DNA of 58,386 nt from Candidatus Collierbacteria bacterium GW2011_GWB2_45_17 (GCA_001001485.1 LCKO01000010.1:1-58386), one strand, 5' to 3'. Positions 611 through 57,590 are shown, counted from the stretch's first letter. The notes: generated by a model from the sequence alone, not told the origin. Numbers and translations: made by a program.

Positions 611-631
611 GGAGTAAGTGCAGATCTCCCG

Positions 632-654
632 CCTGCGAGGACAGTCCTCGCAGG
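632..654. repeat. REP-B palindrome copy
   Basis: Perfect 23-nt palindrome CCTGCGAGGACAGTCCTCGCAGG (11-bp arms, 1-nt centre). Confidence 0.9.
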
Positions 655-660
655 GGGCGG

Positions 661-684
661 TACTTCAAGGAGACTCCTTTAAGT
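661..684. repeat. REP-D palindrome copy
   Basis: TACTTCAAGGAGACTCCTTTAAGT, an imperfect palindrome. Related copies at 2190-2213 and 42199-42220. Confidence 0.7.
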
Positions 685-702
685 TTAAATTGTCAGTCTT
701 TT

Positions 703-818
703 TCCTGTCCGGTGATTTGTGCGACTTGGAACCACCTCTTCCCATTTCGAACAGAGAAGTGAAACAGGTCAGCGTCGATGATAGTGATTGGGCAACTGAT
801 TGCGCCTGCGAGGACAGT
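703..818 (+). rRNA. rrf: 5S ribosomal RNA (3' boundary uncertain)
   Basis: Contains the bacterial 5S signature blocks CCCATTTCGAACAGAGAAGTGAAAC (cf. CCCATGCCGAACTCAGAAGTGAAAC) and GTCGATGATAGTG (cf. GCCGATGGTAGTG). Helix II GACTTG/CAGGTC pairs, and 5' CTGTCC (705-710) pairs with GGACAG (812-817). Helix I is only about 6 bp because the 3' end runs into a REP-B copy. Confidence 0.65.
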
Positions 819-827
819 CCTCGCAGG
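805..827. repeat. REP-B palindrome copy overlapping the 3' end of 5S rRNA
   Basis: Perfect CCTGCGAGGACAGTCCTCGCAGG. Its left arm supplies the GGACAG that closes 5S helix I. Confidence 0.9.
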
Positions 828-888
828 AGGTTCTTGAAGGTTGTCATCTTCGCGAATGCGGGGATCCATTTTTATTCGGAACTAATTT

Positions 889-933
889 GTATAGATTCCG
901 GGTCAAGGCCTGCCTACCGGCAGGCAGGGATGT
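889..933 (+). repeat. G-type hairpin element
   Basis: TGTATAGATTCCGGGTC..GGCCTGCCTACCGGCAGGCAGGGATG. It has the TATAGATTCC 5' end shared with copies at 8794 and 57906, and an internal hairpin. Confidence 0.5.
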
Positions 934-993
934 GTACCAAATGGGATATTGACTTGACAAATAGTTAAGCTTTATGTATAGTGTATATTACAT

Positions 994-4782: not shown

Positions 4783-4805
4783 CCTGCAGGGCCAGGCCCT
4801 GCAGG
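4783..4805. repeat. REP-A palindrome copy
   Basis: Perfect CCTGCAGGGCCAGGCCCTGCAGG, starting directly after the TGA stop of the methyltransferase. Confidence 0.9.
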
Positions 4806-12241: not shown

Positions 12242-12264
12242 CCTGCAGGGCCAGGCCCTGCAGG
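12242..12264. repeat. REP-A palindrome copy (left flank of RAYT-1)
   Basis: Perfect CCTGCAGGGCCAGGCCCTGCAGG. Confidence 0.9.
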
Positions 12265-12295
12265 TGGATGTGATTCATGTTTATAATGGTGGTAT

Positions 12296-12970
12296 ATGCC
12301 ACAAAAGAATAGTCGTAAAGAATATGGTGCCGGCGGGTATTACCATATCTTTAATCGAGGAGTAGAGAAGAGGAATATTTTTCTAGATGAACAAGATTAC
12401 AAAGTTTTTCTTGGCTATATGAAATTTTATCTCGAGATGCCTAGCCTGCAGGGCCAGGCCCTGCAGGCGGTGTCGCCATCAAAGATTCTCAAAAATTACC
12501 ATGACCAGATTGAGTTGCTTGCTTATTGTTTGATGCCAAATCATTTTCACTTTTTGATAAAACAATCGACCGATCGAGGTATCGCAGAATTTATGCAGTC
12601 TTTGGTGCTGAAGTACGTGATGTATTTTAATAAGAAATATAAACGAGTGGGGAGTTTGTTTCAAAGCCGATATAAGACAGTTCTAGTTGAAAATGAAAAT
12701 CAGTTTGTTTATATAACCAAATATATTCATCGGAATCCAATTGATATTTTACCTGCAGGGCCAGGCCCTGCAGGTCTGGAGGAGTATAAATATTCCAGTT
12801 ATGGAAATTACCTGGGATTGTTCCGGCAGGATTGGGTGAAGGCGGAAGAGATACTTTTTAACTTTTCAAAGAAAAATCATAGAAACACCTACCGATCTTT
12901 TGTGGAAGACTCGAGAGACACGGAAGACATCAAGAAAGTGTATCGTGAGATGATTGACCTGGATGATTAG
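12296..12970 (+). CDS. REP-associated tyrosine transposase (RAYT, Y1/HUH IS200-like transposase family), paralog 1
   Basis: 224 aa. YHIFNRGVEKRNIF N-terminus, HUH motif in MPNHFHFLIKQ, catalytic-Tyr region YITKYIHRNP. Flanked by REP-A on both sides and carrying two in-frame internal REP-A copies. Confidence 0.85.
   Translation: MPQKNSRKEYGAGGYYHIFNRGVEKRNIFLDEQDYKVFLGYMKFYLEMPSLQGQALQAVSPSKILKNYHDQIELLAYCLMPNHFHFLIKQSTDRGIAEFMQSLVLKYVMYFNKKYKRVGSLFQSRYKTVLVENENQFVYITKYIHRNPIDILPAGPGPAGLEEYKYSSYGNYLGLFRQDWVKAEEILFNFSKKNHRNTYRSFVEDSRDTEDIKKVYREMIDLDD
12445..12467. repeat. REP-A copy inside the RAYT-1 CDS
   Basis: Perfect palindrome, translated SLQGQALQAV. Confidence 0.9.
12752..12774. repeat. 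REP-A copy inside the RAYT-1 CDS
   Basis: Perfect palindrome, translated LPAGPGPAGL. Confidence 0.9.
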
Positions 12971-12979
12971 ACGCCTTTG

Positions 12980-13002
12980 CCTGCAGGGCCAGGCCCTGCA
13001 GG
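12980..13002. repeat. REP-A palindrome copy (right flank of RAYT-1)
   Basis: Perfect CCTGCAGGGCCAGGCCCTGCAGG, 10 nt after the RAYT-1 stop. Confidence 0.9.
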
Positions 13003-15828: not shown

Positions 15829-15842
15829 CTAAGGCCTGCAGG

Positions 15843-17185: not shown

Positions 17186-17208
17186 CCTGCAGGGCCAGGC
17201 CCTGCAGG
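17186..17208. repeat. REP-A palindrome copy
   Basis: Perfect CCTGCAGGGCCAGGCCCTGCAGG, in the intergenic region. Confidence 0.9.
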
Positions 17209-17941: not shown

Positions 17942-19354
17942 TTACGTCAGCTTGATGGAGCGGATGGAGGCGTGGGAGAGGGGGGAGAAAACGATGGTGT
18001 AGCCGAGGGATTTGGCTTCTTTGAGCATTTTATCGGTGAAGCCGACTTTTCTGATTTCGCCCAGAAGACCGAGCTCGCCGAAGCAGATGGAGTTTTCCGG
18101 CAAGGGTTTGTCTTTGACCGAGGAGACGATGGCTAGAGCGATGCCTAGGTCGGCACCCGGGTCTTTGACCTCCAGGCCGCCAGTGACGTTCACAAAAACG
18201 TCTTTGGTGGCCAGGCTCAGATTTAGGTGCTTGGTGAGGATGGCGCAGATAAGCTGGAGACGGTTTCCCGAGATGCCTTTGGCGATGCGGCGGGGGATGG
18301 GGAGGGGTGAGGCGACCACCAATGCTTGGATCTCGACTGTGAGGGGACGAGTGCCTTCCATGATCATGGTCAAACAGGAGCCTGGAGCATTTTTGACCCG
18401 TCCTTCAAGCAAAATGGCACCCGGGTCTTTGACCTCGTTGAGGCCGCCGCCATCCATGCGGAAGATGCCGGTTTCGTCTGTCGGGCCAAAGCGGTTTTTG
18501 ACGGTACGCAGAAGTCTAAGAAGATGTTGGCGGTCGCCTGAAAGCTCCAGAACAGTGTCCACCATGTGCTCCAGCATTTTGGGGCCGGCGATGTCTCCGT
18601 CCTTCGTCACGTGCCCCACAATGATCAAGGGAACGGAGTGTTCTTTGGCGGCCTGAATGAGAAAGCTGGCACTGTCGCGGATCTGGGAGGGCGAGCCTGG
18701 GGTGGTGGGGTTCGTGACAGTCGAGACGGACTGGATGGAGTCGACAATACATATTAGATCACAGCTCTCAGATTTCAGATCTCGGTTACTAATTGTTGGT
18801 TTAAGGGCGTCAATAATATTTTCCACGCAGGAGGTGTTGAGGAGCTGGATATGATCGGCCTGCGAGGACAGTCCTTGCAGGCGGGTGATGCGGGAGGCTA
18901 CTTGAGCCGGATTTTCCTCGGAACAGACGTATAAAACCCCTCCGGCCTGCTGGCCACCTCCCCTTGACAGGGGAGGTTGAAGCGATAGTGCGAGCTGGGT
19001 GAGAAGGGTGGATTTGCCGATGCCTGGCTGGCCGGCCAGAAGATAGACGCCGCCTTTGGTGAGGCCGGGACCCAGGACACGGTCGAACTCACCGATGCCG
19101 GTAGAAAAGGTGTAGCCGGTTTGGGAAGAAAGAGCTGTTTTGACCGTAAAACTTTCGGCTGGTTTGAGACTAACTTTCTGGCCGGTTTTGGTTCTGGCGG
19201 TTTTGAGGAAGGGAGCGGTCTCGACGAGCGTATTCCACTCGTGGCAAGCAGGGCATTGACCGGCCCACTTGGGCTCTATTGTAGAGCATTCTGCTTGGCT
19301 TGACTTTTTGAGTGTTATGGGGTATAATGCCGGCAGTCTTGTACGTTCGTCCAT
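17942..19354 (-). CDS. radA: DNA repair protein RadA/Sms carrying two in-frame repeat insertions
   Basis: 470 aa. Zinc-ribbon remnant KWAGQCPACHEWNTL, Walker A GQPGIGKSTL, RadA KNRFG motif (TVKNRFGPT), Lon-like C-terminal domain. Confidence 0.9.
   Translation of the reverse strand: MDERTRLPALYPITLKKSSQAECSTIEPKWAGQCPACHEWNTLVETAPFLKTARTKTGQKVSLKPAESFTVKTALSSQTGYTFSTGIGEFDRVLGPGLTKGGVYLLAGQPGIGKSTLLTQLALSLQPPLSRGGGQQAGGVLYVCSEENPAQVASRITRLQGLSSQADHIQLLNTSCVENIIDALKPTISNRDLKSESCDLICIVDSIQSVSTVTNPTTPGSPSQIRDSASFLIQAAKEHSVPLIIVGHVTKDGDIAGPKMLEHMVDTVLELSGDRQHLLRLLRTVKNRFGPTDETGIFRMDGGGLNEVKDPGAILLEGRVKNAPGSCLTMIMEGTRPLTVEIQALVVASPLPIPRRIAKGISGNRLQLICAILTKHLNLSLATKDVFVNVTGGLEVKDPGADLGIALAIVSSVKDKPLPENSICFGELGLLGEIRKVGFTDKMLKEAKSLGYTIVFSPLSHASIRSIKLT
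18858..18880. repeat. REP-B copy inside the radA CDS
   Basis: CCTGCGAGGACAGTCCTTGCAGG (one G:T mismatch in the stem), translated RLQGLSSQAD. Confidence 0.85.
18957..18976. repeat. REP-C palindrome inside the radA CDS
   Basis: CCTCCCCT-TGAC-AGGGGAGG, translated within LSLQPPLSRGGGQQ. Other copies at 24709, 42254 and 42295. Confidence 0.8.
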
Positions 19355-26546: not shown

Positions 26547-27227
26547 TTAGCATTCGTAATCGATAGCGGTTAAATAAATGGGAGTGATGTCTTCTGGTTC
26601 CTCAACAAATCTTTGGTATGAACTATTTTGTTTGCCGCCAAAGTTAACAATAATTTCTTCTGGACGAACCCATTTTTGGTGAAAATGACCAAGATAATTT
26701 GGATAAGAAGAATATCTATATTCAGACAACTTGTGGGGAGACTCCTTGTAATAAGATGAGAGACCTAGGGGGTTTCGATGGATGTATTTTGATAAGTGTA
26801 TCCATTGATTTTCAGCCTCAATTCTAACGGCCTTATATCTGTCTTGGAACAAGTGTCCGACCCGTTTATATCTTGTGTTGAAGTATCTGACATATTTGGT
26901 GGAAAGTGAACTCATAAAGTTGCTCATGGAAAAGTCATCGTTTTGTTTTATAAAAAGATGAAAGTGGTTGGGCATAAGACAGTAGGCAATTAAGGTGATC
27001 GATTCTGAATAATTACGAAGTATTTTTGAAGGAGACGTTGGTCTTACCTGCGAGGACAGTCCTCGCAGGTCTATTGAATTTGGGTTAGTGAGGTAGAACT
27101 TCAGGTAGGAGAGGAAGGTTTTGTAGTCTTGTTCGTCTAGAAAAATAAGTCGCTTCTCTACTCCGCGATTGTAAATATGATAATAAGCTCCAGACTCATA
27201 TTCCTTAATAGCATTTTTTGAGGGCAT
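26547..27227 (-). CDS. REP-associated tyrosine transposase (RAYT), paralog 2
   Basis: 226 aa, strongly similar to RAYT-1 across the N-terminal and HUH-motif blocks compared here (YHIYNRGVEKRLIFLDEQDYKTF, MPNHFHLFIKQ, LSKYIHRNP). One in-frame REP-B inside and one REP-B 37 nt upstream of its start. Confidence 0.85.
   Translation of the reverse strand: MPSKNAIKEYESGAYYHIYNRGVEKRLIFLDEQDYKTFLSYLKFYLTNPNSIDLRGLSSQVRPTSPSKILRNYSESITLIAYCLMPNHFHLFIKQNDDFSMSNFMSSLSTKYVRYFNTRYKRVGHLFQDRYKAVRIEAENQWIHLSKYIHRNPLGLSSYYKESPHKLSEYRYSSYPNYLGHFHQKWVRPEEIIVNFGGKQNSSYQRFVEEPEDITPIYLTAIDYEC
27047..27069. repeat. REP-B copy inside the RAYT-2 CDS
   Basis: Perfect CCTGCGAGGACAGTCCTCGCAGG, translated DLRGLSSQVR. 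Confidence 0.9.
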
Positions 27228-27263: not shown

Positions 27264-27286
27264 CCTGCGAGGACAGTCCTCGCAGG
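27264..27286. repeat. REP-B palindrome copy (flank of RAYT-2)
   Basis: Perfect CCTGCGAGGACAGTCCTCGCAGG. Confidence 0.9.
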
Positions 27287-38225: not shown

Positions 38226-38248
38226 CCTGCAAGGCCAGGCCTTGCAGG
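38226..38248. repeat. REP-A variant copy
   Basis: CCTGCAAGGCCAGGCCTTGCAGG: a G-to-A change in the left arm is matched by C-to-T in the right arm, so the palindrome is preserved. Confidence 0.9.
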
Positions 38249-41367: not shown

Positions 41368-42225
41368 ATGGATTTTAAGCAGATACTCATGGCTACCTCA
41401 CTTTATGACTGGTTGGGGAAGCGAACTTATGCTCAATCGGGGGAGGATGTGATCGCGTGGGGGGAGCTAAAAGAACTCAAGGAATCAAGAACTCAAGAAA
41501 TCAAGGTACCTGCAGGGCCAGGCCTTGCAGATTGGGGACCTCTAAGGCCTGGCCCTAGGGGGTCAAAAACGGGGTTTTATGTGGATGTGGGGGCGTATCA
41601 TCCGAAACTATTTTCGAATACGTATTTGTTCTACAAAAAAGGCTGGCGGGGCATTTGTATTGAACCGAATCCGAGAATGAAAAAGTTGTTTCTGATAGCC
41701 AGGCCGAGGGATGTGTTTGTGAGTGTGGGAGTGGGGGAAAATCAAGAACTCAAGAACTCAAGGAATCAAGGAATCAAGACAAAAAGAGTTTTGGAGTATT
41801 TTGAGTTTGAGGATGGGGCGGTGAATACTTTTTCGGCGGAGCAAGCCAGGAAAAATCAGGAGGAAGCAGGCCGGAAACTGATAGGCAGAAGAAGGATACC
41901 GGTTCTGCCGCTCAAAACTATTTTGGATAAATATTTGCCTAAAGGCCAAAAAATTGATCTGCTGTCGGTGGACGCGGAGGGGATGGATTTGGAGGTTTTG
42001 AGATCGAATGACTGGAAAAAGTATCGGCCGGAGATGATTATTGCGGAGGATTTGACCGACAGGGCCAGGCCTTATAGGGGATTTAATCCTTCAAGGCCTG
42101 GCCCTGCGGGTGGTGGTAGTGGAGGGGTGGTGAGATTTTTGGACAGTGTTGGATATAGATTGGTGGCGAAGACGCCGTATTCGGTGATATTTAGAGTCCA
42201 ACAAGGAGTCTCCTTGAAGGTATAA
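41368..42225 (+). CDS. FkbM-family methyltransferase riddled with repeat insertions
   Basis: 285 aa. YAQSGEDVI...FYVDVGAYHP..FSNTY.FYKKGWRGICIEPNP and DLLSVDAEGMDLEVL are FkbM/Methyltransf_21-like. It contains two minisatellite tracts and two REP-A dimers in frame. Confidence 0.7.
   Translation: MDFKQILMATSLYDWLGKRTYAQSGEDVIAWGELKELKESRTQEIKVPAGPGLADWGPLRPGPRGSKTGFYVDVGAYHPKLFSNTYLFYKKGWRGICIEPNPRMKKLFLIARPRDVFVSVGVGENQELKNSRNQGIKTKRVLEYFEFEDGAVNTFSAEQARKNQEEAGRKLIGRRRIPVLPLKTILDKYLPKGQKIDLLSVDAEGMDLEVLRSNDWKKYRPEMIIAEDLTDRARPYRGFNPSRPGPAGGGSGGVVRFLDSVGYRLVAKTPYSVIFRVQQGVSLKV
41465..41505 (+). repeat. AACTCAAGG-type tandem repeat tract (inside the FkbM CDS)
   Basis: GAGCTAAAAGAACTCAAGGAATCAAGAACTCAAGAAATCAAG, translated ELKELKESRTQEIK. 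Confidence 0.7.
41509..41561. repeat. REP-A dimer (two units separated by a short spacer)
   Basis: CCTGCAGGGCCAGGCCTTGCAGA-ttgggga-CCTCTAAGGCCTGGCCCTAGGGG. Confidence 0.8.
41738..41782 (+). repeat. AACTCAAGG-type tandem repeat tract (inside the FkbM CDS)
   Basis: AAAATCAAGAACTCAAGAACTCAAGGAATCAAGGAATCAAGACAAAA, translated NQELKNSRNQGIKTK. Confidence 0.7.
42056..42110. repeat. REP-A dimer (degenerate)
   Basis: CCGACAGGGCCAGGCCTTATAGG..CCTTCAAGGCCTGGCCCTGCGGG, inside the FkbM CDS. Confidence 0.7.
42199..42220. repeat. REP-D palindrome copy
   Basis: CAACAAGGAGTCTCCTTGAAGG at the 3' end of the FkbM CDS. Confidence 0.65.
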
Positions 42226-43507: not shown

Positions 43508-45221
<1,714 letters not shown>

Positions 45222-57056: not shown

Positions 57057-57590
57057 TTAGGTAGGTAACATAGGTGGAAAGTAGCTGTTCGCTAAGAATG
57101 TTGACCAGATTTTGGTCGGTAAAGGGGGTTTGGTTGGCAGTCCAGAGAAAGAAGTGATGAAGATCCGAAAGGTAGTTTTTGACGGTATTTTGGCGGAGGA
57201 GAGGGAAGCGGCGGGTGACACACCCTGTAGGGCCAGGCCTTGAGGATTGGTGCCCTTTAAGGCCTGGCCCTGGAGAGGGGCGAGGCCGAACTGGGCGTGC
57301 AGGAAAGTAGAGAAGCGGCGGATGGAGGCGAGGCGCCTGGCAGTGGTGTTTGCCGGAGTGAAGGAGGCTTTTTGAGCTTGAAGATAGGGATCGAGGTATT
57401 GATTGAGATTTTGGAAGATGTCTTTGGTGGTGAGGGTGAGGCCCGCCGCCGCCGAAGGCTCTGGCGAGGTAAAGGAGAGGAAGTGGCGGAGATCGGAGAG
57501 GTAGTTTTTGATAGAGACGGAAGAAAGACCGGCCTGCTGGAGAAAGGCTTGGAAGAATTTTAACAGTTCTACTTGGTCGGGCAGGTACAT
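57057..57590 (-). CDS. giant surface protein, N-terminal cytoplasmic segment with tyrosine-recombinase core-binding (SAM-like) repeat
   Basis: 177-aa ORF. FLQQAGLSSVSIKNYLSDLRHFLSF ... TTARRLASIRRFSTFL resembles the phage-integrase N-terminal SAM-like domain. The last roughly 60 aa are out-of-frame after the REP-A dimer. Confidence 0.6.
   Translation of the reverse strand: MYLPDQVELLKFFQAFLQQAGLSSVSIKNYLSDLRHFLSFTSPEPSAAAGLTLTTKDIFQNLNQYLDPYLQAQKASFTPANTTARRLASIRRFSTFLHAQFGLAPLQGQALKGTNPQGLALQGVSPAASLSSAKIPSKTTFRIFITSFSGLPTKPPLPTKIWSTFLANSYFPPMLPT
57224..57275. repeat. REP-A dimer with a 1-nt gap in one arm (site of frame break)
   Basis: CCTGTAGGGCCAGGCCTTG-AGG ... CCCTTTAAGGCCTGGCCCTGGAG. 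The arm GGCCTTGAGG lacks the C expected from palindrome symmetry (GGCCTTGCAGG). Confidence 0.75.

Follow-up and report, generated by a model that had tools for sequence, protein, structure and literature searches.

A putative REPtron-type system with palindromes inside its transposase gene in Candidatus Collierbacteria

The coexistence of a domesticated transposase with non-autonomous elements has its standard example in the REP/RAYT system, and knowledge of that system comes almost wholly from Proteobacteria and Cyanobacteria.

RAYTs with their REPs and REPINs (REPtrons) are well known (Nunvar 2010, PMC2817692; Bertels & Rainey 2011, PMC3116915; PMC5581495), and the structure of the E. coli TnpAREP is available as 4ER8 (PMC3479197). 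The tyrosine motif of class 2, the RAYT type, has the form Y-x-x-x-N-P, versus Y-x-x-x-Q in IS200 (PMC6006769). REPs that lie in frame inside tnpAREP genes have been described for subclass 2.4, Bertels group 4 (Quentin, Siguier, Chandler & Fichant 2018, PMC6006769). Members of subclass 2.1/TIRYT (Bertels group 1) are reported without REP-like sequences, or with terminal inverted repeats instead (PMC6006769; PMC3733652), and they are also reported to carry a distal HTH/DnaA_C-like domain together with the motifs NH[YF]H, FQ and Y[IV]HLNP and an SS tail. Intragenic REPs of the GTAG/CGTC type and Rickettsia palindromic elements (RPEs) have been catalogued as well, many of them in repair genes (Di Nocera 2013, PMC3733652). 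A literature search of partial coverage gave no description of RAYT, REP or IS200 in Patescibacteria/CPR, which is absence of evidence only. Here we describe a gene of this kind, RAYT-1, and its palindrome, REP-A, in a stretch of 58,386 nt from Candidatus Collierbacteria bacterium GW2011_GWB2_45_17, the whole of which is referred to as the window.

RAYT-1, RAYT-2 and their palindromes

RAYT-1 encodes a Y1/HUH tyrosine transposase homologue of 224 aa that matches the Pfam profile Y1_Tnp (PF01797) at 44 bits (E = 2.9e-11, cut-off 23) and contains the motifs YHIFNRG, MPNHFHFLI and YIHRNP. Its HUH motif is H83-F-H85, and the catalytic Tyr143 sits in YIHRNP, which has the class-2 Y-x-x-x-N-P form; all three residues are invariant in an alignment of 71 RAYT-1 homologues that has 46 invariant columns. 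NHFH, FQ and the tail motif YSSY are also present, and a Pfam profile search detected no HTH/DnaA_C domain. The sole NCBIfam match is REP_Tyr_transpos (NF047646), at 42.9 bits and thus under the equivalog cut-off of 80. When an AlphaFold2 model built from the 71 homologues (mean pLDDT 69, with a confident core) was searched with Foldseek, the top matches (E about 1e-4, probability 1.0) were ISDra2 TnpA, IS608 TnpA and the E. coli RAYT 4ER8. Sequence and profile searches of the PDB reached IS200-type TnpA weakly and did not reach 4ER8, so that the predicted kinship of RAYT-1 to the E. coli RAYT comes from the modelled fold alone.

REP-A (CCTGCAGGGCCAGGCCCTGCAGG) is a perfect 23-nt palindrome that forms a GC-rich hairpin with a loop of 1-3 nt and lacks stop codons in all six frames. 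The exact 23-mer starts at 4783, 12242, 12445, 12752, 12980 and 17186, and four of these copies fall within 761 nt around and in RAYT-1. The variant CCTGCAAGGCCAGGCCTTGCAGG, found at 38226 and 43801, differs by two mismatches that constitute a compensatory double change, such that palindromy remains perfect. Four longer elements begin at 41509, 42056, 44290 and 57224, each of which folds as one hairpin of ~55 nt made of two inverted units (REPIN-like). The total for the window is 8 monomers and 4 inverted dimers, or 12 units for 1 gene, with 0 units expected, and 100 dinucleotide-preserving shuffles of the window gave 0 REP-A matches. The features are as follows.

12296..12970, plus strand: RAYT-1, 224-aa Y1/HUH tyrosine transposase homologue (Pfam Y1_Tnp; AlphaFold2/Foldseek)
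12242..12264, plus strand: REP-A, upstream flank, 31 nt before the RAYT-1 start codon; same in the related loci L082 and L084
12445..12467, plus strand: REP-A, internal site 1, in frame, encoding LQGQALQ (aa 51-57)
12752..12774, plus strand: REP-A, internal site 2, in frame in another register, encoding PAGPGPAG (aa 153-160)
12980..13002, plus strand: REP-A, downstream flank, 9 nt past the RAYT-1 stop codon
4783..4805, plus strand: REP-A, dispersed and intergenic, immediately past the end of a methyltransferase gene at its stop codon
15835..15842, plus strand: half-REP remnant CCTGCAGG; full REP in L084, 28-nt deletion in the window
17186..17208, plus strand: REP-A, dispersed and intergenic
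38226..38248, plus strand: REP-A variant, probably shortly before the real start of a sortase gene
41509..41562, plus strand: REP-A inverted dimer in an FkbM-type methyltransferase gene, in frame
42056..42110, plus strand: second REP-A inverted dimer in the same FkbM-type gene, in frame
43801..43823, plus strand: REP-A variant in obg, in frame, encoding GLQGQALQV (aa 95-103)
44290..44343, plus strand: REP-A inverted dimer in obg, in frame (aa 258-276)
57224..57278, plus strand: REP-A inverted dimer inside the minus-strand ORF 57057..57590

These results agree with the original prediction, in which an ORF with Y1/HUH hallmarks was said to be bracketed by identical palindromes: the motifs were found, the profile search that it proposed was significant, and every coordinate that it gave for the two brackets, the eight monomers and the four dimers proved correct, with 38226 and 43801 being the two-mismatch variants. 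The comparison with shuffled controls that it proposed, made here within the window, likewise showed an excess.

Most of the dimers and one of the monomers fall inside real genes. This location, the in-frame coding of the two internal copies, the half-REP at 15835 and RAYT-2 with REP-B go beyond what the original prediction had noticed. The ORF at 57057-57590 (minus strand) has, of a tyrosine integrase, the N-terminal SAM-like domain only; behind it come the peptide that the REP-A dimer encodes and a tail of low complexity. Downstream of the ORF no catalytic domain was found, and the ORF may be a truncated xerC/D-like gene.

The sole other homologue in the window, RAYT-2, is 56% identical to RAYT-1 and has a palindrome of its own, REP-B (CCTGCGAGGACAGTCCTCGCAGG), which differs from REP-A.

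26550..27227, minus strand: RAYT-2, 226 aa (Y1_Tnp, 49 bits)
27047..27069, plus strand: REP-B, internal site 1 of RAYT-2
27264..27286, plus strand: REP-B, upstream of RAYT-2

REP-B was also encountered at a structural RNA gene. A 5S rRNA gene lies at 708-829 on the plus strand (Rfam 49.7 bits, gathering score 38), and an exact REP-B 23-mer (805-827) forms its 3' end, where the 3' strands of helices V and I lie; a second exact REP-B at 632-654 lies about 55 nt upstream of the gene. It seems that a REP has been built into, or fused to, this 5S rRNA gene, and no orthologous 5S genes were found in the retrieved homologue loci. The candidate ORF 618..968, which would carry both REP-B copies, was rejected as a gene: it has no Pfam match and the region is the 5S rRNA gene. 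Other families of short GC-rich palindromes occur at 18960, 24712, 42257, 42298 (minus strand), 22239, 22929 and 29293, among them CCCCTTGACAGGGG, with 4 copies versus 0.03 expected, and another of the type GTCGCC..GGCGAC. Some members of these families lie inside long ORFs, and no cognate transposase gene for them was found in the window.

Orientation was compared by means of the central base of the palindromes. All 13 REP-A and REP-B monomers of the window have the central A on the G-rich plus strand. GC skew is strongly positive (0.08-0.37) across the entire window, 1-58386, and never changes sign. At metagenomic sites the orientation of the central base is only weakly biased (53:33; n=86 informative, p=0.04). 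A ratio of 53:33, which coding constraints confound, is too weak to support a claim of lagging-strand-specific insertion.

Conservation and dispersal of the palindromes

The closest relatives of RAYT-1 are found in Candidatus Collierbacteria, where the proteins are 91-95% identical. In these relatives (loci L081-L086) the gene occupies a constant site between copA, which encodes a copper P-type ATPase, and a gene for a BlaI/Penicillinase_R-like repressor, with 73-92% DNA identity around the locus; the neighbours in the window are the same and no tnpB is adjacent. RAYT-1 is single-copy within the window, where its paralogue is merely 56% identical and no near-identical duplicates occur. Between the window and L082, 16.4% of the positions of RAYT-1 outside the REPs differ, rising to 35% at third-codon positions, versus 0 differences in the 92 nt of REP-A (46 internal and 46 flanking). 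The comparison of these sequences indicates that the palindromes at RAYT-1 are maintained at the DNA level.

The presence of REPs nevertheless varies between strains whose DNA is 92% identical, as is seen between the window and L084. A 28-nt REP indel lies right after the stop codon of ytkA. Moreover, a single REP at 4783 in the window corresponds in L084 to an extra segment of ~1.07 kb (1072-2165), which carries a ParA/ArsA-like ATPase gene and has a REP-A copy at each end, the centre bases of the two being opposite. This arrangement suggests that REPs act as junctions for the insertion or deletion of gene cassettes. An unrelated perfect palindrome of 20 nt, CCTGCCTGCCGGCAGGCAGG, abuts REP-A at 15380-15399 of L084 and is missing at the 17186 site of the window; the related CCTGCCTACCGGCAGGCAGG occurs in the window at ~908-927.

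Relatives of RAYT-1 were found at >598 loci among GTDB species representatives, nearly all of them Patescibacteria, with hosts among the Beckwith-, Levy-, Davies-, Woese-, Chisholm-, Curtiss-, Shapiro- and Saccharibacteria. Six loci (L005, L007, L009, L031, L043 and L071) come from MAGs labelled as Gammaproteobacteria, Pseudomonadales, Bathyarchaeia or Nanoarchaeia and encode a protein of Patescibacteria type. These labels are probably binning or labelling errors, and a real presence of the protein in DPANN archaea is possible.

Are hairpins a general property of the family? Perfect hairpins with a stem of at least 7 bp were scanned for in 93 homologous genes from 87 loci, with site 1 defined as reference aa 45-70 and site 2 as reference aa 146-166. 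They were found upstream in 58 genes, downstream in 56, at site 1 in 24 and at site 2 in 29, and only 6 hairpins were located elsewhere in the genes; with imperfect palindromes allowed, nearly all family members of at least 50% identity have 3-4 copies. The hairpin sequence varies between genomes and matches within one locus, such that a 7-mer is shared by 123 of 131 within-locus hairpin pairs (94%) versus 6-10% of between-locus pairs, and an AGG...CCT core near the loop is common to 33 of 38 cognate hairpins. As far as the sequences tell, this within-locus matching is the signature of a protein that co-evolves with its hairpin. Cognate hairpins are sparse in the ±10 kb flanks of the homologous loci (0.05 per kb), being 30-60 times denser in or beside the gene, and a distant cognate copy is present at 15 of 40 loci. 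For many genomes, the hairpins of the gene itself may make up nearly the whole 'REP family'.

REP-A itself is widespread in metagenomes, where the exact 23-mer was recovered from >110 stretches representing 100 distinct contexts. No conserved base was found within ±12 nt of REP-A across these contexts, and neither a GTAG/CGTC tag nor a guide tetranucleotide was seen. About half of the usable sites (46 of 91) lie in long ORFs, and only two of the reading frames are used there, PAGPGPAG and LQG[QL]ALQ, the Cys/Arg-rich frame never being used; this restriction indicates that the inserts are probably translated and under selection. In the window, the product of obg has 353 aa versus 344 aa in 96%-identical proteins, which lack half of the dimer, and both REP-A insertions are absent from more distant Obg orthologues. 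A one-mismatch variant of REP-B at 18859 is likewise in frame inside radA (RLQGLSSQA), and it is also present in L084.

The two copies inside RAYT-1 were placed on the AlphaFold2 model. Both fall in loops of low confidence, site 1 in the one that joins helix 32-46 to strand 72-80 and site 2 in the linker (aa 146-177) that follows the catalytic helix. Among the homologues, site 2 occurs in all three frames, with its centre 5 to 41 nt past the NP motif; such variability points to repeated insertion or replacement and speaks against a single ancestral event at site 2. At site 1 a single ancestral insertion is possible within the clade of at least 55% identity. The frame of site 1 (L-Q/R-G) is constant in four lineages with different REPs, and Gly53 is invariant in the 71 homologues, while the DNA of the site follows the lineage-specific flanking REP; such constancy requires concerted evolution or selection. 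Internal copies are commoner at loci with dispersed REPs (9/13 vs 6/21, p=0.03). The loop location, the variability of site 2, the REPs in other genes and the association with dispersal together favour local, recurrent insertion or conversion filtered by tolerance. Most likely, then, the internal copies arose by recurrent in-frame insertion or conversion of the cognate REP and are tolerated by the protein; they probably do not belong to the catalytic design.

Relation to described systems

How does this locus compare with the known systems? REPtrons likewise consist of a single-copy, vertically inherited Y1/HUH gene that has the tyrosine motif Y-x-x-x-N-P and is flanked by cognate GC-rich hairpins, which are dispersed as monomers and inverted dimers (REPIN-like), with a separate REP family for each paralogue. 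Dispersal of the flanking palindromes beyond the copy number of the gene (12 units vs 1 gene) is observed here, as are low copy number in the window and vertical inheritance, indicated by the synteny in L081-L086. In contrast to described REPtrons, RAYT-1 scores below the NCBIfam equivalog cut-off, the foot of the REP-A hairpin has no GTAG/CGTC tag, REP-A is perfectly palindromic over its 23 nt, has a loop of 1-3 nt and lies within genes in about half of its copies, and the host belongs to the Patescibacteria rather than the Proteobacteria. The identification as a RAYT made by the original prediction is accordingly supported, with one qualification: the Y1/HUH fold family, the Y-x-x-x-N-P motif and the cognate REPs speak for it, but a score of 42.9 bits, where the cut-off is 80, sets the protein apart from canonical RAYTs. 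The label 'REPtron-like' is fair, since none of the three outcomes that the original prediction named as refuting it was seen: the profile match is significant, the palindrome is abundant outside the window, and RAYT-1 is not a normal multicopy IS, being single-copy and syntenic between copA and the BlaI-like gene, with a paralogue of 56% identity that has a different hairpin.

Subclass 2.4 shares with RAYT-1 the presence of cognate REPs within the transposase gene that leave the frame unbroken and are predicted to be peripheral to the active site. It differs in that the insertions of RAYT-1 lie before HuH 83-85 (aa 51-57) and after Y143 (aa 153-160), in that its motifs are WQ and YIxNNP versus FQ and YIHRNP in RAYT-1, a separation drawn from motifs only, and in that its REPs, which carry GT[AG]G, are either long or of the 'double-foot' kind, whereas REP-A has no tag of the GTAG/CGTC type. 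As judged by motifs, RAYT-1 resembles subclass 2.1, with a signature of NHFH, FQ, YIHRNP (YIHLNP in paralogues) and an SS motif in the proximal tail (YSSY), and with a similar length of about 225-238 aa; unlike that subclass, it has cognate hairpins and no detected HTH domain. The intragenic copies resemble RPEs and other intragenic REPs in that short palindromes are inserted in frame in conserved genes, including a DNA repair gene (radA here), and, as monomers or dimers, lengthen loops by 8-30 amino acids. The obg ORF stays intact, and Obg has the properties of a protein with an in-frame palindromic element (RPE-like). REP-A is, however, another sequence family, and it is linked to a Y1 transposase gene that itself carries REPs.

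That REPs occur within genes of many kinds, tnpAREP included, is known already (Quentin 2018; Di Nocera 2013), and the original prediction overrated the novelty, since REPs within tnpAREP had been published for another subclass (PMC6006769). For the protein subfamily, as for the lineage, the literature search of partial coverage gave no description of such a system. What sets the present family apart is the combination of a subclass-2.1-like protein with REPs, the insertion sites before HuH and after Y, the lack of a GTAG/CGTC tag and the Patescibacteria hosts.

Proposed mechanism and rival explanations

We consider it likely that a REPtron-type system is present in this Collierbacteria chromosome, consisting of RAYT-1 and its cognate REP-A, and that the internal copies are tolerated insertions. 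For the enzymology, IS608 TnpA and E. coli TnpAREP serve as models. RAYT-1 would be a domesticated, vertically inherited Y1/HUH single-strand DNA endonuclease/transposase whose cognate substrate would be the REP-A hairpin. The protein would bind this hairpin in single-stranded DNA, would cleave and rejoin beside it via HUH (H83/H85) and Tyr143, and by this activity would spread, replace and homogenise REP-A monomers and inverted dimers. Because REP-A is free of stop codons in six frames, copies can persist inside genes. Copies would accumulate around the transposase gene and be retained only where they are harmless, namely in the two intergenic flanks and in two surface loops, of which one connects helix A with strand 2 and the other is part of the linker that follows the catalytic helix.

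An alternative hypothesis is that the internal hairpins are selected cis-elements of a conserved four-hairpin module (upstream, site 1, site 2 and downstream), by which the protein recognises its own gene or mRNA, for example in self-repression, in self-cleavage or as REP master copies. The four copies are indeed perfectly conserved despite 35% synonymous-site divergence, but the dispersed copies are conserved equally (the exact 23-mer in 100 contexts), so that conservation is not special to those inside the gene. The same four positions recur in distant members with unrelated hairpin sequences, yet a perfect internal hairpin is absent in about half of the homologues and both position and frame vary at site 2. 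That site 1 keeps its frame and Gly53 across 71 homologues, its DNA meanwhile following whichever REP flanks the gene in each lineage, and that compensatory double changes keep variant copies palindromic, would also be expected of cis-elements; against this, the same REPs occupy loops of unrelated genes and internal copies accompany REP dispersal. The density in the gene, 30-60 times that of the flanks, speaks for such elements as well, and gene-centred density together with the constant frame of site 1 fits a selected role at least as well as passive tolerance. Taken as a whole, we regard the cis-element explanation as unlikely. We are similarly doubtful that an obligate four-hairpin module exists across Patescibacteria, in which the coding hairpins would be self-recognition sites (for autoregulation or as master copies that seed REPs) and REPs would generate in-frame insertions in essential genes and even in a 5S rRNA gene.

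It is very unlikely that the palindromes spread without the RAYT-1 protein, leaving the gene as a hotspot or bystander, whether by template-switch or fold-back synthesis, by another recombinase, or as host-factor sites with the 8-bp CCTGCAGG motif. Fold-back copying could produce both the perfect palindromy and the symmetric variants, the REPs have no conserved flanking cleavage tag, and the window contains no cognate transposase gene for the further palindrome families. However, every paralogue and orthologue across the 87 loci has its own matching hairpin, and the AGG/CCT core is common to the family; such specificity between hairpin and protein is the hallmark of RAYT-REP co-evolution (PMC6006769). 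An ordinary IS of the IS200/IS605 type, in which the gene and its subterminal hairpins move as one unit, is largely refuted and extremely improbable: the order of hairpin, gene and hairpin does recall how IS200/IS605 elements are built at their left and right ends, and the TnpA proteins of ISDra2 and IS608 are the best structural matches, but the gene is single-copy at a chromosomal site shared with relatives at 73-92% DNA identity, RAYT-2, at just 56% identity, comes with another hairpin, there are far more hairpins than copies of the gene, the tyrosine motif reads Y...NP instead of the IS200 Y...Q, and tnpB is not adjacent.

The REPtron-type reading, in which REP-A would be the substrate of RAYT-1, extends the REP/RAYT system to the ultra-small Patescibacteria, and it does so with a protein subfamily that resembles one reported as REP-free. 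The arrangement is clean, with perfect palindromes, two paralogues that have two distinct REPs in one 58-kb window and four gene-associated copies, and for this reason the specificity and co-evolution of RAYT and REP are directly testable. Finally, palindromes that are open in all frames and spread in frame into obg, radA and other genes would provide a concrete mechanism for some of the lineage-specific insertions in CPR proteins.
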